From a virus (lineage: Duplodnaviria > Heunggongvirae > Uroviricota > Caudoviricetes): a stretch of 34,727 bases of DNA. Of this stretch, positions 1 through 34,727 are shown piece by piece. The stretch lies in the IMG/VR virus record IMGVR_UViG_2585427750_000024; one strand, 5' to 3'. A program made the translations under genes and the position numbers. Under the pieces are notes generated by a model. The model did no database searches. It was given only the letters and a program-made list of their open reading frames with translations, and was not told the origin of the DNA. Each line of letters starts with the position of its first letter. Position 1 is the stretch's first letter.

Positions 1-1002
1 TTACCCTCTATTGTCAAAAGGGTTCAATTCAACAGCAGCCTCTAAATGACCTGGAGCAAAATGCGCATAACGCATAGTCATTTTTATATCGCTATGCCCC
101 AGTATTTTTTGCAACACAAGAATATTTCCGCCCCGCATCATAAAATGACTGGCAAACGTGTGACGTAGCACATGAGTTAATTGCCCATCAGGAAGCTCGA
201 TCTTCGCTCTCTTAATTGCAGCGTCAAAAGCCTCATAACATGGTGAAAATAGCGCTCCTCGTTTTTGAGGAAGCATAGCCTGCAATTGAGGTGAAATCGG
301 TACAGTGCGGTTCTTCTTTCCTTTAGTTTTAACAAATGTGATTCGACCGGGCAGTACTTGAGATTGCTTTAATCCTTCAGCTTCACTCCACCGAGCACCA
401 GTCGCAAGCCCAATACGGACAACAACCCCCAAATCTTTATTCCGTGACTCATCACACGCAATCAGAAGGCGTTCAATCTCATCTACATACAGAAACGCCA
501 GTTCCTTTTCTTCCTCACGAAACTTGCGAATACCAGTCAGGGGGTTTTCACCAGACCACTCCCCAAGGCGCTTCAGTTCGGCAAAAACAGCATGTAGATA
601 TGACTGCTCGCGATTAACGGTTGCTTCACTAAGTTTTTTCTTCCCCTTGGGATTCCATTCTCCTGATAGCCTTCTTTCCCGATAAGTAGCAAACATATTT
701 TTGTCAAACTGAGAAGCAAATGGATCCCCCAGCCTGGAACAAATCGCCTCAAGTTTGACTTTGCGCTCTGCACCAGAGGACAAGGTTTTACCGTACATCT
801 CAAACCAACGAGCAATCAACTCAGAAAGACGAGGACCAGAACCATCTTGAAACTCGTCTCCAACTCTACTATTCATTAAACGGCGCTCATAAGAGAGCGC
901 CTCACTTTTTGTCGCAAACTGTTTACGAATGCGTTTTCCCGATGCCCCGTAGGGATAACATTCGCAAAGCCATTTACCTGATGGAATCTTACGAACCGAC
1001 AT
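1..1002 (-). CDS. int: Tyrosine recombinase / phage integrase, P2-type
   Basis: 333 aa; C-terminal catalytic region (HVLRHTFASHFMMRGGNILVLQKILGHSDIKMTMRYAHFAPGHLE) matches the R..HxxR..Y integrase signature and recalled P2 Int; stop codon TAA at 1-3 on minus strand; sits at prophage end next to the immunity region. Confidence 0.9.
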   Translation of the reverse strand: MSVRKIPSGKWLCECYPYGASGKRIRKQFATKSEALSYERRLMNSRVGDEFQDGSGPRLSELIARWFEMYGKTLSSGAERKVKLEAICSRLGDPFASQFDKNMFATYRERRLSGEWNPKGKKKLSEATVNREQSYLHAVFAELKRLGEWSGENPLTGIRKFREEEKELAFLYVDEIERLLIACDESRNKDLGVVVRIGLATGARWSEAEGLKQSQVLPGRITFVKTKGKKNRTVPISPQLQAMLPQKRGALFSPCYEAFDAAIKRAKIELPDGQLTHVLRHTFASHFMMRGGNILVLQKILGHSDIKMTMRYAHFAPGHLEAAVELNPFDNRG

Positions 1003-1007
1003 TTTAG

Positions 1008-1355
1008 TTACTTATCACATAAATCAAATGCAGCCTTAGTGACATCCCCCAGACTCTTTTTTAACCCTGGGGCGGCATCATTATCTAGCCAAAATGGATT
1101 ATTGTTATCTAACGGTAACGCACCAAATGTTTTACCTTTTATTCGAGCTAAACCTGTAAGCGCATATAACTTATTATCGTCAAAATTCATCACATAAGGA
1201 TTACCATCAAGACACTGTAATTGAACCTCATCAGTATTAAATGGCCATACCCCATTGAAACTCTCACGTTCAATAGTTTTAAAAGGCATTGCGACGGCGG
1301 AAAAAGAAAACATAGATAAAAAAGTAACTAATAGTTGAACCTTTTTTACTTTCAT
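1008..1355 (-). CDS. Small secreted/periplasmic protein of unknown function (cargo gene)
   Basis: 115 aa; N-terminal signal peptide (MKVKKVQLLVTFLSMFSFSAVA), two Cys; tightly packed between int and the upstream ORF; no P2 counterpart at this position. Confidence 0.5.
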   Translation of the reverse strand: MKVKKVQLLVTFLSMFSFSAVAMPFKTIERESFNGVWPFNTDEVQLQCLDGNPYVMNFDDNKLYALTGLARIKGKTFGALPLDNNNPFWLDNDAAPGLKKSLGDVTKAAFDLCDK

Positions 1356-1384
1356 ATCATTACCTCAATTTAGCTCAAGTAAGA

Positions 1385-2035
1385 TTACAAATTAAAAAAC
1401 ACCCTAGAAATGGCACCGCCTACCAAAACCCCTACGCAGATAAAGAATATTATTTCTTTTGGATAAAGTCGGATTAATTCTGAAGCACGAAGTCGAACTT
1501 CTGGTAAGGCCGAACTCTCTGTGTGACTTGATGCCGATTGTTGCTCTAACCACGACAATGCAGACTGTAACTGAGAACGAGTAAGATCGTTTAAACGTCC
1601 TGTACCGAAATTGATATGGCAATACCGCAGAAGTTTTTGTCGAAGTCCACAGTCTTCACTGTTACGTAGTAATAAACTTACAAGAGTCTTACAGGCATCA
1701 TGATCTTTACATCGCTCAAGCATTGCATGCAGAAAACTCTCCGCTGTTTTATATTGATTTACTGTCATATCATCAATACCAGCTACACCAATCTCCGCAT
1801 GTACTTTTTGCCAAATAATAAACGCTTCAGTATTGCTAGCTTCTGCAATAGCAGCAACCAAGCTATTTAGCTCCTTACGCTGAGCCTTAAGCAAAGGGCG
1901 ATCGTCATCATCATTATTCGAAGGGATTGCGATATTGACGGTATGAGAACCATCATATCGCTCTATCTGAATATTCTTTTCGTGAAAATCACGCCCAGCA
2001 ACGCGATTGTTTGAACCGTTTGAGTTGACGGCCAT
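1385..2035 (-). CDS. C-terminally membrane-anchored protein co-transcribed with the repressor; candidate superinfection-exclusion/abortive-infection factor
   Basis: 216 aa; strong SD (GGAGGTGAC) immediately before ATG, 15 nt after the repressor stop; single C-terminal TM helix (IIFFICVGVLVGGAISRVFF); N-terminus shares the motif SNNRVAGRDFHEK with the repressor C-terminus. Confidence 0.55.
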   Translation of the reverse strand: MAVNSNGSNNRVAGRDFHEKNIQIERYDGSHTVNIAIPSNNDDDDRPLLKAQRKELNSLVAAIAEASNTEAFIIWQKVHAEIGVAGIDDMTVNQYKTAESFLHAMLERCKDHDACKTLVSLLLRNSEDCGLRQKLLRYCHINFGTGRLNDLTRSQLQSALSWLEQQSASSHTESSALPEVRLRASELIRLYPKEIIFFICVGVLVGGAISRVFFNL

Positions 2036-2050
2036 GTCACCTCCCTACTA

Positions 2051-2455
2051 TCACCTACCCTTAGTTTCGTTATAGTCACGACCAGCGATACGGTTATTAC
2101 CACCAGAAATATTTAACTCACGTCCTGATGGCTGAGTTTCCTTTTCACTGATCGCACCTTTTAAAGCCCCGATCACCGCGTTTTTCACATCTAACGAAGC
2201 TGCTCGAAAGCGAGTAATCAACTCCTGCTCATCATCGTTATAAGTTTCAGGTGAGTGAATTCCCAACACAACATACTGAACATCAAGGCCAAAACGAGAC
2301 AGCGCTGCCAAATACGCAGCATCAGGAAAGCTATCTCCTTTCTCATATCTAAGCTGAGTTAGCTTTTTGACTCCACCAATGTCGCTCATGGCAACTTGAC
2401 TAAGTCCCAATCTTTCCCTTTCCTCACGCAACCGCTGACCAATATCATTTTTCAT
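2051..2455 (-). CDS. HTH (XRE-family) immunity repressor, P2 C-like
   Basis: 134 aa; N-terminal HTH (LGLSQVAMSDIGGVKKLTQLRYEKG); divergent from cox-like genes, adjacent to int as in P2; C-terminal tail GGNNRIAGRDYNETKGR. Confidence 0.75.
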   Translation of the reverse strand: MKNDIGQRLREERERLGLSQVAMSDIGGVKKLTQLRYEKGDSFPDAAYLAALSRFGLDVQYVVLGIHSPETYNDDEQELITRFRAASLDVKNAVIGALKGAISEKETQPSGRELNISGGNNRIAGRDYNETKGR

Positions 2456-2464
2456 ACAAAAACC

Positions 2465-2493
2465 TTGACAGGTATCTTTTTTGATACCAAAAT
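2465..2493 (+). promoter_or_regulatory. Candidate early promoter with operator palindrome (TTGACA, 17 bp, CAAAAT; GGTATC-N6-GATACC in the spacer)
   Basis: TTGACA at 2465-2470; perfect 6-bp inverted repeat GGTATC(2471-2476)/GATACC(2483-2488); weak -10 CAAAAT at 2488-2493; lies in the divergent repressor/cox intergenic region. Confidence 0.35.
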
Positions 2494-2530
2494 GATTTCA
2501 CGAGCTATTAGATGATCACAATATACCACT

Positions 2531-2737
2531 ATGAAACAAGTTCTTCACGATACCAGATCACGCATTCCGCGTAACACCGCCACAGGTCCAAGACTGGCAC
2601 TTCGGCTGTCCCTCGAGGAGCGAGCCGTCATTGATGAAATGGCAGCTAAAGAACAACGCTCATCCTCTAACATGGCGCGCATGATCTTCCTTCGCGGCCT
2701 AGAGCTAACCCAGAAAGAACAAAACAAATCTTCCTGA
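2531..2737 (+). CDS. Small ribbon-helix-helix-like DNA-binding protein
   Basis: 68 aa; pattern LALRLSLEERAVIDEMAAKEQRSSSNMARMIFLRGL resembles RHH/CopG/MobC-type regulators; first gene of the rightward early operon. Confidence 0.45.
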   Translation: MKQVLHDTRSRIPRNTATGPRLALRLSLEERAVIDEMAAKEQRSSSNMARMIFLRGLELTQKEQNKSS

Positions 2738-2753
2738 TCAGGAGGCTAGTGGG

Positions 2754-2957
2754 ATGTCAGGTATAACCATCAATATCAATGTGAATGCCCCCTATGTATC
2801 CCTGCAGAAATATGCAGAGATAACAGGTATCCCTCTTAATACATGCAAAAAGATGTTGGCTGACGGTCGAATTATTATCCGCCCCAAACGCGCCAAAATG
2901 GAAAAGCCTGAAGTAAACCTTGTGGCGATGTTAAAAGACGCTTTGGCTAACAGCTAA
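2754..2957 (+). CDS. Cox-like HTH excisionase / early-switch regulator
   Basis: 67 aa; segment YVSLQKYAEITGIPLNTCKKMLADGRI resembles the HTH of recalled P2 Cox (YQEFAKLIGKSTGAVRRMIDKGKLP); RBS GGAGG upstream. Confidence 0.5.
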   Translation: MSGITININVNAPYVSLQKYAEITGIPLNTCKKMLADGRIIIRPKRAKMEKPEVNLVAMLKDALANS

Positions 2958-7898: not shown

Positions 7899-8858
7899 AT
7901 GAAAATTTGTATCGACGACGGCTCCACCAACATCAAGCTGGCATGGACTGAGAACGGCGAACGCCGCAACGCCATCAGCCCGAACAGCTTCAAGTCGGAA
8001 TGGTCTGCGCCGTTCGGTGGCACGCAGCCCGCGAACTACATGCTTGATGGCGTGCGCTATGGTTTTGATCCGGTCAGCGATCGCTTTGTCCAGACGACCG
8101 ACACGCAATACCAGTACAGCGATGTGAATATAATTGCCATTCATCACGCGCTGGTCAAATCAGGCATCACACCACAGGAAGTGGATGTGGTTGTCACCCT
8201 GCCACTGAGCGAGTATTTCGATACAAACGCACAGCCGGACATGGCCAACATCAACCGCAAAAAAGCGAACGTCATGCGCCCGGTGGAGTACCAGAACGGC
8301 GAAGCATTCACTATCCGTAACGTACGGGTTATGCCTGAATCCATTCCGGCTGGCTTTAAGGCACTGGCTGACATGAGTCCGTTTGAATCCCTGCTGATTG
8401 TGGATTTGGGCGGAACCACTCTGGATGTGGCAAAGGTTCAGGGGCAACTGGCAGGTATCAGCCAGGTGTTTTGCGATCCACACGTGGGCGTTTCTCTGAT
8501 GGCCGATGCCGTACTGTCGGTGATGGCCACTAACGGTATGCGCACCAGTCACCACATCGCCAATACCATTATCGAACATCGCCATGATGAAGCCTGGCTG
8601 CGCCAGCACATCCACAATGACGCGCATTACGCCAGCCTGATGGCGGTTATTCGTGAAAAGGAAGAAACACTGAAACAACGCGTGATCCGCGCGCTGGCGG
8701 GTTTTTCGGGTTACGGGCGGGTGATGGTTGTCGGTGGAGGGGCGGAGATTGTGGCACCCGCTATCCGCGAAGCCTGCGGAGTTAATGCGACTTTCATCGC
8801 GGACGGGGTGCCACAGTTTGCTCTGGTTAATGGGCTGTACGCAATGGACAAGGAGTAA
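7899..8858 (+). CDS. parM: ParM/StbA-like actin-like segregation ATPase (type II partition)
   Basis: 319 aa; MKICIDDGSTNIKLAW, ISPNSFK.EW, VMPESIPAG, IVDLGGTTLD, VMVVGGGAE, ALVNGLY all align with recalled plasmid R1 ParM. Confidence 0.85.
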   Translation: MKICIDDGSTNIKLAWTENGERRNAISPNSFKSEWSAPFGGTQPANYMLDGVRYGFDPVSDRFVQTTDTQYQYSDVNIIAIHHALVKSGITPQEVDVVVTLPLSEYFDTNAQPDMANINRKKANVMRPVEYQNGEAFTIRNVRVMPESIPAGFKALADMSPFESLLIVDLGGTTLDVAKVQGQLAGISQVFCDPHVGVSLMADAVLSVMATNGMRTSHHIANTIIEHRHDEAWLRQHIHNDAHYASLMAVIREKEETLKQRVIRALAGFSGYGRVMVVGGGAEIVAPAIREACGVNATFIADGVPQFALVNGLYAMDKE

Positions 8859-9237: not shown

Positions 9238-9828
9238 ATGAGCGAAATCAACTATCAGGCATTACGTGAACGTTATTCACCTGTGCCAGTACCGAAATGC
9301 CCTATTTGCGGCGAGGAAATGTCAATTCAGCGAATATCTGGAGCACAGGTTGTTTATGCCTGCTCCGGTTATGGTGATGATGGAGATTTCAAAATTGGCC
9401 AAACTCTTGCCGACGAACATTATGAAAAATCACGCGTAACAGTGTTGGATGTCGGGGATCCTGAAGTATTGGCGCTACTTGATTGGCTGGAAACCAAAGA
9501 CAACCGAATCGCTGAACTGGAAAAAATCGCCACTGACTATGCACTTAAATTCCAGAAAGCACAGGACGCATTAAAGTATGCCGCTTTGCTGCATAGCAGG
9601 ACGGCGCAACAAACAAATAATTTTGCAGTATCGCTTCCGGACATAAGCGAATATTTCATTAATGACGTATTTCAGCCCTTGCGATACGAGCGGGATGTTG
9701 AAAGAGCCATCATAAAGGCTGGCGGAAAAGCATTGTGGCAGGAGAAACACGAGGACAGAACGCATCAGTCCTGCGATGTAAATCGTGGATGGTTTAGCCC
9801 ACTGACGACAGATAAAAATAACACCTGA
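9238..9828 (+). CDS. Hypothetical protein with N-terminal Zn-ribbon-like CxxC...C and central coiled-coil-like region
   Basis: 196 aa; CPICGEEM...YAC; RBS AAGGAG upstream; located in the hotspot between A and cos. Confidence 0.55.
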   Translation: MSEINYQALRERYSPVPVPKCPICGEEMSIQRISGAQVVYACSGYGDDGDFKIGQTLADEHYEKSRVTVLDVGDPEVLALLDWLETKDNRIAELEKIATDYALKFQKAQDALKYAALLHSRTAQQTNNFAVSLPDISEYFINDVFQPLRYERDVERAIIKAGGKALWQEKHEDRTHQSCDVNRGWFSPLTTDKNNT

Positions 9829-10317: not shown

Positions 10318-11364
10318 TCAGGATGTGGGCTGGGTATCTAGCAGTGCGTAAGGGTTAAAGCGGATCACCTCTTCGCCAAGCCAGTCATTGATGTGCTTCA
10401 TGGCCTCCATGACGGGCATCAGCTCGTTAATTGCGTAAACCCGCGCGGCCTTCTCCACATCACCAAACGCACTTTTTTCGCCCGGCATCGCCCCCATCAG
10501 TTGCGGCGGAACGCGGTGCGCAGCCAGCACATCATCACGGGATGCCGCCTTAACATTCATGAACTCATCCTTTGCAGTGATCTGCTGGAACGGCAAAATT
10601 TGCACACCTTCTTTGCCCCCGTTGGGCGCATGGATGAGTACGTTTTTAAACGCACCACCACCACGCGCGCCCTGTAACGTTTCTTTCAGGGAGTCCATGC
10701 TTTCGCGGTTTACCTGCGCTGCACCGATGTAGATGATGCACCCGGCGTGGGATCCGTTGTCGTAGTACAGTTTTCTGAACATGTCCGCCGAATGAGAAAG
10801 GCTGGCCGAGAGTAATGCGCCAAGATATTCCGGCATGCCGTAGATTTCCTGGTTAATATCCGGATTCATCAGGTGGCACACTTTGCCAGGGCGAAACTGG
10901 AACGCGTCCTTGCCATCCTGCACATACCACCATGATTCAAGATCGCTTCCGCGTCGCATGTATTTCGCCAGGGCGTGCCGTAATTTAAGCGGTTCGCCGA
11001 GCATATTGCTTCTAAGCTCAAGGAATGCGTTACCGAACACAAACCAGTCCAGCGCCAGCGCCGAGAAATCCTGCCGGGAAAGCAGCGGGTGCGGGATGTA
11101 GCAACCGAGTAATACATTGCGCTTAAAGTAAAGCGCAGACTGATGCCAGGACGTTTGCCGGGCTGCTCTTGCCAGACCGTACCAGTCCACCGGGGTTTCA
11201 TACCACCGTCCGTTATCAGCACAGTACATATTGTCCAGCAGGTCATGCCCGGTCAGGCGATAAGGACCATCAAATGTGAATGCACTGAGCGATGATTCTT
11301 TCCTGAGCGCATCAGCGAGATCAATGCGTGAACTCATGCGCACTTTTTTATTTTTTCTGCTCAT
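10318..11364 (-). CDS. Q: Portal protein, P2 gpQ-like
   Basis: 348 aa; size and position match P2 Q, adjacent to and co-oriented with the terminase gene. Confidence 0.85.
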   Translation of the reverse strand: MSRKNKKVRMSSRIDLADALRKESSLSAFTFDGPYRLTGHDLLDNMYCADNGRWYETPVDWYGLARAARQTSWHQSALYFKRNVLLGCYIPHPLLSRQDFSALALDWFVFGNAFLELRSNMLGEPLKLRHALAKYMRRGSDLESWWYVQDGKDAFQFRPGKVCHLMNPDINQEIYGMPEYLGALLSASLSHSADMFRKLYYDNGSHAGCIIYIGAAQVNRESMDSLKETLQGARGGGAFKNVLIHAPNGGKEGVQILPFQQITAKDEFMNVKAASRDDVLAAHRVPPQLMGAMPGEKSAFGDVEKAARVYAINELMPVMEAMKHINDWLGEEVIRFNPYALLDTQPTS

Positions 11365-13115
11365 CAGAACTCCATAACCGTGAAACGCTCGTTTTCTCCT
11401 TCGCCGCCAATCGGTTCGTTAATGACAGCAAGCATGGTTGCCCACGCAAGGTCGCCGTGGCTGATCCCCCTCGCGCGGTCCGTTTCGTAAGTGATAAAGC
11501 CGCCCGGTGTTTTCACCTTACGCACGGCGTTAAAGGCCGCGACCAGCTCGCGTTCGGCGCGATCGTATTCCCACCGCCCGGCACGCATTATTTGCAGCAT
11601 TTTCAGTACCAGCGACCGTTTTGATGACAGCGTGAAGGTGTACGGAATAGCAGCAGGGAAAAACCGTTTCACTATCTGATAAACAGCCTCCCCGTTCCCG
11701 CCCGTCACATCAATGCCGATGTGTTCCACGTTGTAGCGATACGTGAACTCTTCAATGACTCTGGCCTGTTCTTCAAACTCCAGCCCCTGAACGCGTCGCG
11801 TCTCCACCGTTCGAAAACGGCCACCAGGAACAGCCGGAGGAACCACCACGGACACAGCGCCGCTGTCGCCGTTGCCACTACTGCCGTTTGCGTCATACCC
11901 AATCCATACCGGACGATTCCCCATCGGGCGGGGAGCAAAAGGTTTCCAGTCTTTCCAGTCGTCGTATCCGTCAACACCGCAGCCAATCAGGATATTCAGG
12001 TTAAATGCCGATTCCCCTTCGCGGACAAACTCACACATATAGAGATTGAGGAACTCGTCTTCGGTGTTTTCATCACGAATTTCGTCGATATCGGTGTGTT
12101 TCCAGCCGTGATTGACCACATCTTCCAGCGTGACAATTTGCCGCCACGTCCGGTCAGGGCAGATAAGCCCGTTATGCAGCGTTTTCCAGTCCACAGAAAA
12201 ACGCTGGCGTTTATGCGTGGCCTTTTTCTCGTTCCAGCGGTCGCCGTTCCAGTAGGCGTATGCCTCGTGCGTTTCGGTGGATGGCGTGGAGAAGTAGGTG
12301 CGCCGCAGTCCGCTGAGGGTTGCCATAGCGCCAGCCACCTTGCGCAGTTCAGCAAAGCGACTGACCCAGAAAAATTCATCAAAATAAAAATTGCCCGTAT
12401 AGGACTGTGCCGACGCAGCAGAAGTGCCGAGAAAATGCAGCTCTGCGCCGTTGGAGAGGATGATTTTATCGCCCCCTTTCAGCTCCACATCAACTTCAGC
12501 CGCGGCCTTCTGAATAATGCTTTTAAACTGGAACGCCTGACGACGCGACGCAGACAAAAAAATCTGGTTACGCTGGTAAGGTTGCGCCACATCGTCACGC
12601 AGCGCCATCAGCAGAGCTTCCTGTGCAAAATACCAGGTCGCCCCAATCTGTCGGGATTTCAGGATCATCCTGTTACGTATCCCGGCTTCCCTGCAAAGGG
12701 TCAGGGAGTCAAACCAGCCCCGCTGATGCCACTCCAGCCTGCTGATGATTTTTTCCCGCAGTGCGGCAATCTGTTCCGGCGTGAAATGATTTTTGAGTTT
12801 TTTCGCCCGGCCTTTCTTTCCTGTGACCGTCGCATCCGGCTGGCCATCATGCAGTTTTTTAAGCTGCCGGGTCAGCAGGTCTATTTCCTTAAAGTCACCG
12901 CCTGTTTTATTCTGTTTTTCAGTAAGCTGGATGAGGCGCGCATCGATGGACTGCGTGACACGCTGCACGGGTGGCGTTTCATCCCACTGGTCGCGTTTTT
13001 TCCACGCATAAATCGTGTTCGGGTTTATTCCCATCAGACGTGATATTTCTGCGGGCGGATAACCCTGCCAGTAAAGTTGCCGCGCACGCTGGCGCACAAA
13101 AGCGTCCTGAATCAT
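11364..13115 (-). CDS. P: Terminase large (ATPase) subunit, P2 gpP-like
   Basis: 583 aa; N-terminal HTH-like MIQDAFVRQRARQLYWQGYPPAEISRLMGINPNTIYAWKKRDQWDE; P2 P-Q leftward operon arrangement. Confidence 0.9.
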   Translation of the reverse strand: MIQDAFVRQRARQLYWQGYPPAEISRLMGINPNTIYAWKKRDQWDETPPVQRVTQSIDARLIQLTEKQNKTGGDFKEIDLLTRQLKKLHDGQPDATVTGKKGRAKKLKNHFTPEQIAALREKIISRLEWHQRGWFDSLTLCREAGIRNRMILKSRQIGATWYFAQEALLMALRDDVAQPYQRNQIFLSASRRQAFQFKSIIQKAAAEVDVELKGGDKIILSNGAELHFLGTSAASAQSYTGNFYFDEFFWVSRFAELRKVAGAMATLSGLRRTYFSTPSTETHEAYAYWNGDRWNEKKATHKRQRFSVDWKTLHNGLICPDRTWRQIVTLEDVVNHGWKHTDIDEIRDENTEDEFLNLYMCEFVREGESAFNLNILIGCGVDGYDDWKDWKPFAPRPMGNRPVWIGYDANGSSGNGDSGAVSVVVPPAVPGGRFRTVETRRVQGLEFEEQARVIEEFTYRYNVEHIGIDVTGGNGEAVYQIVKRFFPAAIPYTFTLSSKRSLVLKMLQIMRAGRWEYDRAERELVAAFNAVRKVKTPGGFITYETDRARGISHGDLAWATMLAVINEPIGGEGENERFTVMEF

Positions 13116-17943: not shown

Positions 17944-18085
17944 CCAACCCACATGGGGAAACCTCGGAATATGGGGCGACCGCCTTCTGGATGCACTGGA
18001 AACCTGTAACGCGGATAAACGGGCCATTGCTGAACTGGATAAGAGAATAGCCGAACTGACACACCAGACGGGAGTAACACAATGA
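17804..18085 (+). CDS. o-spanin lipoprotein (Rz1/LysC-like), embedded/overlapping the i-spanin
   Basis: Lipobox LVLLTGCAG, Pro-rich mature region; track start GTG 17774, ATG 17804 more likely. Confidence 0.55.
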   Translation: MNAPTLCLTLVLLTGCAGTQNAPRPAPSVRLIPQTLTMPVTPPPFPDQPTWGNLGIWGDRLLDALETCNADKRAIAELDKRIAELTHQTGVTQ

Positions 18086-19959
18086 CCAGTAAGAACTTTG
18101 CACTGATTACAGCCATGACACAGGCTGAACTGACTCAAAAGGTGAATGAACATCTTGCGAAAGGGTGGCATCTTCAGGGGGAGACGCGGGTTGCCTACGA
18201 ACCCGGCACCCCGTGGTATCTAATGCAGGCAATGGTGGCCGATGGCACTACAGACATCTCACCTGATTCCCCCCAGCACGGCAGCGTGCCGGAGTGGTAT
18301 TACGTGGTGGTACTTGCTGGTCAATCCAATGCCATGTCATATGGTGAGGGAATGCCGCTGCCGGATTCTTACGATGCGCCCCACCCACGCATTAAGCAAC
18401 TGGCCCGTCGCAACACAGTGACTCCCGGTGGTAAAGCATGCGCATTTAACGACATCATTCCGGCAGATCACTGCCTGCATGATGTTCAGGATATGAGCGC
18501 ACTGAATCACCCGAATGCAGACCTGAGCAAAGGGCAGTATGGCTGTGTCGGACAGGGCTTGCATATTGCCAAACGCCTGTTGCCTTACATTCCACAGAAT
18601 GCCGGGATTTTACTGGTTCCATGCTGTCGTGGTGGTTCGGCATTCACCCAGGGCGCGGAGGGGACATTCAGCGAGTCCACAGGAGCCAGTCAGGATTCGG
18701 CTCGCTGGGGGGTGGGTAAACCTTTATATCAGGACCTGATTTTGCGCACGAAGGCCGCATTGCAGAAAAACCCAAAAAACATGCTGCTGGCCGTATGCTG
18801 GATGCAGGGCGAATTTGACATGAGCGCCGCTACGTACTCACAGCAACCTCCGCTGTTTGCGGCCATGCTGAAACAGTTTCGTGCGGACATTACCGAGTTT
18901 AACACGCAGTGTCATGGAGGCAGAGCGGCAAGTGTGCCATGGATTTGTGGTGACACGACGTATTACTGGAAAAACACCTACGGCACGCAGTACGACACCA
19001 TTTACGGGGCGTACAAAAACAGGGAGAGCGACAACGTTTTCTTTGTGCCATTCCTGACCGATGGTAGTGGCAACAATACCTCCACCAACGCACCAACGGA
19101 AGATCCGGATGCTGCAAGTGAGGGATATTACGGTTCGGCATCCCGAACGAACAAAAACTGGGTATCATCAAATCGCCAGACGCATTTCAGTTCATGGGCG
19201 CGCAGGAGCATTATTCCGGATCGTATGGCAACCGCTATTCTGAACGTAGCCGGTCGCACCTTAGCCTTCATCAGTGGTAAGGCACCGGAAATCAAACCCT
19301 CGCCCGGCGGCAACACGCCATCGGGTCCGTCTGCAGATACGTCCGTTCGCACAATCTCCCTGCTGCCGGCAGCCGGAGAGGCTGCTGCGCAGGGCTGGAG
19401 CATTAAGGATGGCGGAATTCAGTTGTCAGATGGTGTATTTAAGATCACCAAGCAGAGCAATAAAACCTGGTCCCTGACGCATCCGGTGGATGACGCAATT
19501 ACCCTGCTGACACAGGGCGGCAGACTGACCTGTAAGTTCCGCCTGTCAGGCGCACTGACCAACAATCAGTTCGGGCTGGGGATTTATCTGTATACGGATG
19601 CTCCCGTTCCTGATGGTGTGGCGATGACGGGTACCGGTAATCCGTTCCTGATGTCGTACTTCACTCAGACCACTGACGGCAGAGTGAATCTGATGCATCA
19701 CAGGAAAGCCGGAAACACGAAGCTGGGGGAGTTCGGCGATTACGGTAACGACTGGCAGACGCTGGAGCTGGTGTTCACCGCCAGCAGTGCCACGGTTACT
19801 CCGAAACTGAATGGAGTGGCTGGCCCGGCATTCCAGGTCATAAAAGACAGTCTGACACTGGGGCTGAATGCACTGACGCTGACGGATATTACCAAAAATG
19901 CAACGTATGGCGTTGAGATAGAAAGTCTGGTGCTGGAAATAAATAGTCCTGCAGCGTAA
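18082..19959 (+). CDS. Prophage NanS-p-like sialate O-acetylesterase (DUF1737 N-domain + SASA/SGNH esterase domain)
   Basis: 625 aa; N-terminal MTSKNFALITAMTQAELTQKVNEHLAKGWHLQGE (DUF1737-like) then VVVLAGQSNAMSYGEG (GQSN motif); start overlaps o-spanin stop; no counterpart in P2. Confidence 0.65.
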   Translation: MTSKNFALITAMTQAELTQKVNEHLAKGWHLQGETRVAYEPGTPWYLMQAMVADGTTDISPDSPQHGSVPEWYYVVVLAGQSNAMSYGEGMPLPDSYDAPHPRIKQLARRNTVTPGGKACAFNDIIPADHCLHDVQDMSALNHPNADLSKGQYGCVGQGLHIAKRLLPYIPQNAGILLVPCCRGGSAFTQGAEGTFSESTGASQDSARWGVGKPLYQDLILRTKAALQKNPKNMLLAVCWMQGEFDMSAATYSQQPPLFAAMLKQFRADITEFNTQCHGGRAASVPWICGDTTYYWKNTYGTQYDTIYGAYKNRESDNVFFVPFLTDGSGNNTSTNAPTEDPDAASEGYYGSASRTNKNWVSSNRQTHFSSWARRSIIPDRMATAILNVAGRTLAFISGKAPEIKPSPGGNTPSGPSADTSVRTISLLPAAGEAAAQGWSIKDGGIQLSDGVFKITKQSNKTWSLTHPVDDAITLLTQGGRLTCKFRLSGALTNNQFGLGIYLYTDAPVPDGVAMTGTGNPFLMSYFTQTTDGRVNLMHHRKAGNTKLGEFGDYGNDWQTLELVFTASSATVTPKLNGVAGPAFQVIKDSLTLGLNALTLTDITKNATYGVEIESLVLEINSPAA

Positions 19960-34144: not shown

Positions 34145-34419
34145 GTGGGAAACAATAAAGTGAAATTAGGAAGAAATGATAAGTGCTGGTGTAATTCAGG
34201 ACTTAAGTATAAAAAGTGCCATCTTGGTCGAGATCGTGAAACTCCGGTATCCAAAGCCGAGGCACTGAAATTTTCAAAGTCTCTCTCGCAGAGAAAGGCA
34301 TGTTATGCGCCAGCATCCATGCACGAAGATTGTGATAAACGCATCGTTCAGGCGCATACGATATCTAAGAGCAGTAGCCTTAAGGCGATCGCCGACTCCA
34401 GCAATCACGTCATGGGGGT
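34145..34419 (+). pseudogene. SEC-C-motif protein gene truncated by IS insertion
   Basis: GTG start; N-terminal KCWCNSGLKYKKCH (SEC-C-like metal-binding motif); reading frame runs into the IS terminus at ~34420, so track ORF 34145..34597 is chimeric. Confidence 0.4.
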
Positions 34420-34727
34420 TGGATTTGCCCCTATATTTCCAGACACCTGTTATCACTTAACCCATTACTGGCCTGCTGCCGCAGATATTCCCGTGGCGAG
34501 CGATAACCCAGTGCACTATGCGGATGCCATTCGTTATAATGCTCGAACGCCTCTGCAAGGTTCTTTGCTGCCGTTAACCCGTCTGGTTTGGGCATGATAC
34601 TGATGTAGTCACGCTTTATCGTTTTCACGAAGCTCTCTGCTATGCCGTTACTCTCCGGACTCCGCACCGCCGTGTTCTTCGGTTCAAGCCCCAACATCCG
34701 GGCAAACTGCCGTGTTTCATTAGCCCG
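34420..34727 (-). mobile_element. IS3-family insertion sequence (IS2-like), partial: terminal inverted repeat and 3' end of transposase orfB; continues beyond window
   Basis: Element terminus begins TGGATTTGCCCC at 34420; minus-strand ORF 34431..34697 encodes ...[24 protein letters not shown]..., typical IS3-family (IS2 InsD-like) C-terminus; truncated by window end. Confidence 0.7.

Follow-up and report, generated by a model that had tools for sequence, protein, structure and literature searches.

Why would a phage repressor and the membrane protein encoded beside it carry the same peptide? The question is raised by the immunity region of IMG/VR record IMGVR_UViG_2585427750_000024, a stretch of 34,727 nucleotides that was analyzed over its full length (hereafter, the window) and that represents a complete P2-family prophage of approximately 34.7 kb, of the P88-like genus Xuanwuvirus. 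On the minus strand, a gene for a helix-turn-helix (HTH) repressor is followed by those for a 216-aa protein (the partner), a 115-aa protein and the integrase. A preliminary description of this DNA had treated the first three open reading frames (ORFs) as one cargo module, and we recovered these ORFs as it gave them; the repressor has 134 aa. Our analysis indicates that the repressor and partner recur together in many other, unrelated prophages with peptides that match within each pair, which suggests a so far undescribed way in which a lysogeny switch is coupled to the cell membrane. The features on which the argument turns are the following.

2051-2455, minus strand: immunity repressor, 134 aa, from the ORF list, Pfam, PHROG and the AlphaFold2 (AF2) model.
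2066-2116, minus strand: repressor tail motif LNISGGNNRIAGRDYNE, residues 114-130, followed by the basic end TKGR.
2036-2050, minus strand: intergenic 15 nt, TGA TAG TAG GGA GGT GAC and then ATG, with three in-frame stops and GGAGG.
1385-2035, minus strand: partner protein, 216 aa, with the motif, a Flk_N helical domain and a C-terminal membrane anchor.
1979-2029, minus strand: partner N-terminal motif VNSNGSNNRVAGRDFHE, residues 3-19, within a conserved, disordered N-terminus of 40 residues.
1526-1903, minus strand: Flk_N helical domain, residues 45-170, formed of two similar helical half-repeats.
1391-1462, minus strand: C-terminal transmembrane (TM) tail anchor, residues 192-215, from a hydrophobicity scan and the AF2 helix.

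When LNISGGNNRIAGRDYNE of the repressor was compared with VNSNGSNNRVAGRDFHE of the partner by BLASTP, 10 of 17 residues were identical and 15 of 17 positive (E 2e-5). The best 15-mer within the motif scored 56 with BLOSUM62, as against 23.3±3.3 in shuffled sequences, none of 2000 of which scored as high. The shared motif is 17-20 residues long. The preliminary description had also held that this likeness is conserved at the level of protein, and the DNA agrees: identity across the motif pair amounted to 30 of 45 bases and, because different codons are used at five of the nine identical residues, the motif cannot be put down to a recent DNA duplication and has been conserved as a peptide. The same description had extended the motif to the secreted 115-aa protein, but it is common to the first two proteins only.

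The check proposed at that stage, namely whether the motif co-occurs in repressor-neighbor pairs of other prophages, was carried out and was positive. The same pair was present in Klebsiella and other E. coli P2-like prophages, in which the HTH and the third gene differ, and in Mu-like transposable prophages of Pectobacterium and Gilliamella. A genome-wide scan added Pseudomonas, Aeromonas, Bordetella, Burkholderia, Jeongeupia, Cellvibrio and others, and characterized phages with the pair include BcepMu (gp17/gp18) and phiE202 (gp21/gp22). The pair spans P2-like and Mu-like prophages of Gamma- and Betaproteobacteria. Of the IMG/VR loci in which a Flk_N partner is encoded, 80 of 80 had a motif-tailed ORF upstream, one of these with an R-to-C change. 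Tail-less HTH homologues without such a partner were also found i.e., a chromosomal gene of Pseudomonas that precedes one for a response regulator, and the E. coli repressor P0224. Four loci at first thought to be without a partner (L037, L067, L080, L087) proved to have a matching peptide downstream; the tail was kept with the partner absent in L030, L039, L041 and phage Komp_PAO1_1. The occurrence of the tail without a partner in a few repressors fits a self-association role of the tail, one that the partner would have copied. Judged by this pattern of recurrence, the repressor and partner are a conserved two-gene core of the immunity region and move together between phage types.

The motif itself differs from lineage to lineage, as in the following pairs.

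Enterics: tail [IV]N[VS]SGxGNR[IV]AGRDYNE; partner VNSxGxxNRxAGRDFxE.
Pectobacterium: tail IFNGDISGQFAGNQIIN; partner EFNGTAQGQFSSRDIIN.
Jeongeupia: tail TVDYGNAQIGQASAGDIVN; partner TVSFGGAQIDQAAAGDINN.
BcepMu: tail QVFHGSVGQAVKVEGN; partner QEFNKPVGQAIQAGEAN.

The lineage types can be written as NRxAGRD[YF]xE in enterics, FNGxxxGQFxxxxIIN in Pectobacterium and QQF.G.V..V..GD..N in Pseudomonas, yet within each repressor-partner pair the two motifs match. Across 28 dereplicated loci, cognate tails and partners gave a mean Smith-Waterman score of 46.3, compared with 28.6±2.1 when the pairs were permuted, and none of 20000 permutations reached the observed value. The cognate partner was top-ranked in nine of these loci, and its mean rank was 4.25 against an expected 14.5.

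With regard to the nature of the first protein, its HTH scored below the Pfam cut-offs for HTH_31 and HTH_3 (23.2 bits for HTH_31 vs a cut-off of 27), it matched PHROG 8 at E 2.5e-14, and a profile of its family found the HTH domains of P22 C2 (E 2e-5) and ICEBs1 ImmR. The gene is divergent from Arc-like/Cox-like early genes and lies upstream of int, and the same switch position was seen in Klebsiella, E. coli, BcepMu and phiE202. By its HTH and its position at the switch, the 2051-2455 protein is a predicted Xre/cI-type phage immunity repressor; it is without a protease domain, and in PADLOC it gave weak HTH-level matches and nothing more. The AF2 model comprises a five-helix HTH (residues 5-64), two helices (74-105) and a disordered tail (105-134), for which the predicted local distance difference test (pLDDT) score of the monomer model is about 40. 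Most repressor homologues keep the tail motif. The constant elements on the repressor side are a helix, FRxAPLAVKAAALAALTAG, then a linker that varies, followed by the motif and by a basic end; the last of these is general (in 29 loci, the final 8 residues have a mean net charge of +2.2). In one locus from Salmonella enterica subsp. salamae (L100:767-2801), three tandem repressor paralogues precede a single Flk_N partner; the tail motif is intact in two and degenerate in the third, and the intergenic DNA holds a motif-like remnant, AVGRDYH.

The partner matched phrog_5825, a PHROG family of unknown function, at E 4e-102. Its relationship to the host protein Flk is distant: the NCBIfam Flk model (NF007987) was matched at E 9e-16 and 58.1 bits, below its equivalog cut-off of 353, over profile positions 20-149 of 339, and BLASTP against E. 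coli K-12 Flk gave 28% identity over 124 residues (E 2e-10). The Flk_N family (PF27202) is precomputed for nearly all homologues of the partner, and the window protein was assigned to it through these homologues. AF2 returned a confident helical domain at residues 45-172 (pLDDT above 90) and a TM helix at 192-215, with the N-terminal 40 residues disordered (pLDDT below 50). Fold searches gave weak three-helix-bundle similarities, and a profile search against the PDB found no relative of known structure for the partner family. The single C-terminal TM segment noted earlier was recovered by hydrophobicity as a stretch at 194-210 and by AF2 as the helix just mentioned, with at most six residues behind it. 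The partner is probably tail-anchored in the inner membrane with its bulk in the cytoplasm, an orientation that we infer from this layout.

Within the partner family, truncated variants are rare and the N-terminal motif was present in nearly all of 120 listed homologues, with G7, N10, R11, D16 and E19 invariant. What lies behind the motif takes three forms: a full Flk_N domain with a tail anchor; half a Flk_N domain, a TM segment and a periplasmic domain of approximately 60 residues (Burkholderia, Aeromonas), which contains cysteines in BcepMu gp18 and phiE202 gp22; or one or more TM segments with Flk_N absent. The motif was retained in every partner and a TM segment was detected in most, eight partners falling below the hydrophobicity threshold used for TM detection. 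Because the central domain varies in this way, the motif and membrane anchoring emerge as the constant features. Charge complementarity between the basic repressor end and the partner was also considered, and was dropped when an acidic patch behind the partner motif was found in just 13 of 29 loci.

The two ORFs share a reading frame, separated by three stops, TGA TAG TAG, and then GGAGGTGAC-ATG. A read-through fusion of repressor and partner was rejected given these three consecutive stops and the other frames and overlaps seen in relatives, where the two genes often overlap by 4 nt. The preliminary description had called the two genes translationally coupled, which overstates the case here: the gap is 15 nt and the partner gene has its own GGAGG ribosome-binding site. 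When the window is compared with the prophage L008, the intergenic DNA and the 13 residues that end the repressor are near-identical, whereas the HTH domains of the two are very different. Because L008 shares the intergenic DNA despite its very different HTH, these data suggest that a recombination boundary lies inside the repressor tail.

The remaining genes of the block, and those on the far side of the switch, are listed next.

1008-1355, minus strand: DUF2511/YebY-like secreted protein, 115 aa, an exchangeable cargo protein (Pfam, PHROG).
1-1002, minus strand: tyrosine integrase, the last gene of the block (Pfam Int_N and Phage_integrase).
2456-2957, plus strand: switch region and first early genes.
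2531-2737, plus strand: Arc-like ribbon-helix-helix protein, 68 aa (phrog_3431, E 1e-28).
2754-2957, plus strand: short Cox-like protein, which together with the Arc-like gene begins the early operon.

The 115-aa protein begins with MKVKKVQLLVTFLSMFSFSAVA, after which comes MP; by inspection this is a typical Sec signal peptide (residues 1-22, nt 1290-1355), in accordance with the earlier reading of it as secreted. It matched DUF2511 (Pfam PF10709) at 28.4 bits, above the cut-off of 21, and phrog_2950, a PHROG family of unknown function, and it showed a distant match to the YebY structure 7N0J (E 0.003). Across 80 viral contigs (loci L106-L185), at least nine unrelated gene families occupy the slot that separates the partner gene from int. 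Its contents may be DUF2511, an 85-aa protein with a DUF8087 mark, one of several secreted, lipo- or membrane proteins, or nothing; the slot also holds two kinds of BRCT proteins of approximately 290 aa, one with a WYL-like region, which weakly match the PADLOC candidate PDC-S48. From its homology and this variable setting, the DUF2511 gene is a separate moron with a predicted periplasmic product, placed where the content between partner gene and int varies. The proposed three-gene cargo module accordingly has to be divided, with the first two genes as the core immunity pair and the third alone as the exchangeable item. The contrast that had been drawn with P2, in which no gene separates C from int, is borne out by the related phage P88, in which the C repressor directly adjoins int. 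In Mu-like relatives (L012, L014-L016 and L097) the pair lies just upstream of, and is transcribed toward, the holin-endolysin genes, and the next gene after the partner is usually one for a lipoprotein or membrane protein.

What, then, might the matched peptides do? We propose, with a probability of roughly 0.45, that the two disordered motifs pair directly and thereby tether or regulate the repressor at the inner membrane. Conservation of the motifs in spite of their disorder in the monomer models is typical of segments that fold on binding; taken with the matching across lineages and the occasional tail-only repressor, it points to a homotypic association element, which as a short Gly/Asn-rich stretch may be able to form beta-strands. 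Repressor tails would then pair with each other and with the partner N-terminus, part of the repressor pool would be placed at the membrane, and repressor activity or stability would become dependent on the partner, which would in turn serve the lysogeny switch as a modulator or sensor linked to the membrane. Candidates for the functional outcome are sequestration, stabilization, sensing, or restraint of a membrane effector.

Several points weigh against direct pairing. Inside the enteric group, where the motif is almost invariant, no residue-level covariation was found beyond chance, and because of this near-invariance the covariation signal is one between lineages; there, inheritance of the module as a whole is a partial confounder. 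A partner that is made in amounts equal to the repressor could not simply be its antagonist. The enteric motif is rich in R, D and E, which is less typical of cross-beta motifs, and eight motif peptides searched against Pfam, including the RHIM, HET-s and Ses_B models, gave zero matches at E values of up to 10.

Instead of binding each other, the two motifs might be a shared recognition tag bound by a third factor, which could come from the host (a protease or adaptor: ClpXP, FtsH, Lon) or be an antirepressor encoded by the phage; as decoy or co-substrate, the membrane protein would then tune the turnover of the repressor. MuA has a basic C-terminal ClpX tag, the Mu repressor undergoes tail-controlled degradation by ClpXP, and FtsH requires free unstructured termini; here, both motifs sit in long disordered termini, repressor tails end in a basic cluster and some repressors retain the tail without a partner. 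Nevertheless, the motif type varies between phages of related hosts while remaining matched in each pair, which argues against one conserved host factor, and no candidate for a phage-encoded third factor was identified. The suggestion in the preliminary description that the Ala-Gly of the motif forms a protease tag is also weakened, given that Ala-Gly is not conserved across lineages: some partner motifs have Ser before Gly, and VGQV-type motifs occur elsewhere. On balance, we consider a recognition tag of this kind to be on the unlikely side. Somewhat less credence still is due to the idea of a toxin-antitoxin (TA)-like or abortive-infection unit, in which the repressor tail would hold a latent membrane effector inactive until loss of the repressor, through induction or the attack of another phage, frees it onto the membrane. 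The gene layout does fit that of type II TA systems i.e., an HTH protein whose C-terminal tail is disordered, with the second gene downstream after a short gap or with an overlap of 4 nt; the position in the lysogenic operon is as for rexAB, and Mu-like relatives carry the pair just upstream of lysis genes of the holin-endolysin type. Toxin homology, however, was not found for the downstream protein, which matched neither PADLOC models nor known toxin families and which consists of one tail anchor and a soluble helical domain akin to that of the non-toxic host Flk. The rarity of truncated partner homologues likewise gives no indication of counter-selection.

The Flk_N domain could equally be taken at face value, the partner being a moron that mimics Flk and alters flagellar export or switching of the type III secretion system, with the shared motif incidental to that role. 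In favor of this are homology to Flk over 124 aa with the same tail-anchored topology, the inhibition of the flagellar secretion switch by Flk (PMC13344023) and the frequency of this variant in enterohaemorrhagic E. coli (EHEC) O26 and O103. Set against it are a Flk score of 58 bits where the equivalog cut-off is 353, and retention of the motif by partners without any Flk_N domain. Moreover, the partner family is abundant in prophages of Klebsiella, which is normally non-flagellate, and we regard a flagellar or secretion role as very unlikely. Finally, the motif might be an evolutionary leftover, functionless as a peptide, that is a duplication relic or a recombination linker between immunity modules. 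The tail end and intergenic DNA shared with L008 do indicate that breakpoints fall near the tail, but the peptide has been conserved through synonymous change, and both genes keep it across two classes of Proteobacteria in lineage-specific, matched variants, all of which makes a mere relic highly improbable.

Direct pairing might also take a more particular form, in which the matched motifs are a cross-beta (amyloid-like) templating pair and a clustered partner nucleates the conversion of repressor tails; we treat this as a long shot. The partner would sense an envelope or infection cue, cluster, and convert the tails, so inactivating the repressor in a switch-like, self-propagating manner, and induction of the prophage or its prevention would be under prion-like control common to P2-like and Mu-like phages. 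The likeness here is to the amyloid-signaling pairs HET-S/NWD2, Bell/NLR BASS and Bab/Agp, in which adjacent genes share a C-terminal/N-terminal motif that is matched in pairs. That motif is approximately 20-30 residues long, and Bab/Agp (BASS11) sits in E. coli prophage hotspots (bioRxiv 10.1101/2020.01.06.895854, 10.1101/2024.11.07.622273). The present pair has the shared terminal motif of adjacent genes, but in place of a pore-forming death effector and an NLR/STAND/TGP sensor it has a DNA-binding repressor and a tail-anchored Flk_N protein, and its enteric motif is highly charged and unmatched by the RHIM, HET-s and Ses_B models.

The pair was also set beside other known systems. SinR/SinI of B. 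subtilis (and SlrR/SlrA) is alike in logic: the C-terminal association region of an Xre-type repressor is copied in the product of a neighboring gene, which can co-assemble with it, and by analogy the partner may copy the association region of the phage repressor. The sequences are unrelated, however, with a disordered Gly/Asn-rich tail here and a helical hook there, and unlike SinI the partner is membrane-anchored and is co-transcribed downstream of the repressor rather than separately regulated. Flk (Fluke/RflH) inhibits the flagellar secretion switch and is a cytoplasmic protein anchored by its C-terminus (PMC13344023). It has 331 aa, is encoded by a chromosomal housekeeping gene with no adjacent repressor, and an AGRD-type N-terminal motif is absent from it. 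The preliminary description had named confident homology of the 216-aa protein to a housekeeping family as a result that would count against its proposal. Half of this came about, in that the central Flk_N domain is shared with Flk, and half did not, in that Flk is without the motif.

That description had further likened the locus to rexAB/sieB as a prophage-encoded exclusion system. In lambda rexAB and P22 sieB, as here, accessory genes including a membrane protein are expressed with the repressor in the lysogen; there is no homology, and in the present case it is a peptide-tied membrane protein that travels with the repressor between phage types, which sets it apart from optional cargo for exclusion. 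Neither the 216-aa nor the 115-aa protein matched any PADLOC defense model, and the rexAB/sieB reading is not supported by homology. For the slot before int there is a precedent in the P2-family Vibrio phage K139, cI-orf2(BRCT)-glo-int, which like the window has extra genes between repressor and int. These are read from the lysogenic promoter. The final one encodes Glo, a periplasmic protein whose annotation is involvement in exclusion, and BRCT proteins like K139 orf2 fill the same slot in relatives of the window. The K139 cI, in contrast, is larger, different and tail-less, and the Flk_N partner is absent. By analogy with Glo, an exclusion role for the periplasmic DUF2511 protein is possible, although a comparison of the two found no sequence similarity and they are unrelated.

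For the P2 family, two types of switch are taught, P2 C and 186 CI. In a 2011 survey that covered P2-like regulatory regions, only the P2 and 186 types were recognized, others were called 'heterogeneous' and regions like that of phiE202 were assigned to neither; in phiE202 itself, no analogues of C/cox or cI/apl were found (PMC3448106). In the literature, we found no description of the present repressor-partner pair. On our reading, the region defines a third, widespread immunity type in P2-family prophages, present in those of E. coli, Klebsiella, Salmonella, Pseudomonas and Burkholderia as well as in Mu-like phages such as BcepMu. A peptide-matched membrane protein offers a testable route by which membrane or envelope state might reach the lysogeny switch, and the Flk_N domain would gain a second biological context. 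If the pairing were indeed cross-beta, amyloid signaling would be extended from defense systems to phage gene regulation.

As to the setting of the locus, Escherichia phage 520873 matched the first 3.4 kb of the window at 97% identity, and the 1.5-kb region that carries the three genes was 100% identical to a prophage adjoining yecA in E. coli O26:H11 11368. This region was found in 521 of 5426 complete E. coli genomes (about 10%). In the record of phage 520873 (L001, NC_049344.1) no annotation covers the partner gene, which matches in three fragments, and the integrase appears as two coding sequences; this pattern points to frameshifts by decay or sequencing error. No terminator-like sites were found between 900 and 2800, from which the genes appear to form one operon-like block, and the 75-bp intergenic switch region carries a promoter-like site at 2465-2493. 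Where the window phage has the Arc-like and short Cox-like genes, P88 has a single Cox of 141 aa. At the site of the Arc-like gene, RefSeq annotates a minus-strand ORF of 45 aa in O26:H11 11368 (L003:5543-5680), whereas the Arc-like plus-strand gene is annotated in phage 520873, an apparent annotation discrepancy.

Elsewhere in the window, on the plus strand, 7899-8858 encodes a full-length ParM/StbA-type actin-like protein of 319 aa and 9238-9828 an Ead/Ea22-like protein, neither of which had a PADLOC match. Both genes lie between the replication gene and ORFs at 10318-13115 (putative packaging genes), the position at which P2 carries old/tin. Among the putative late genes, 18082-19959 (plus strand) encodes a protein of 625 aa in which DUF1737, SASA (sialate O-acetylesterase) and DUF6645 domains are combined and which resembles NanS-p esterases from prophages of EHEC. 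An ORF of 150 aa that carries a SEC-C zinc-binding motif (34145-34597, plus strand) and is situated close to the far end of the prophage gave weak PADLOC matches to E2-like models.

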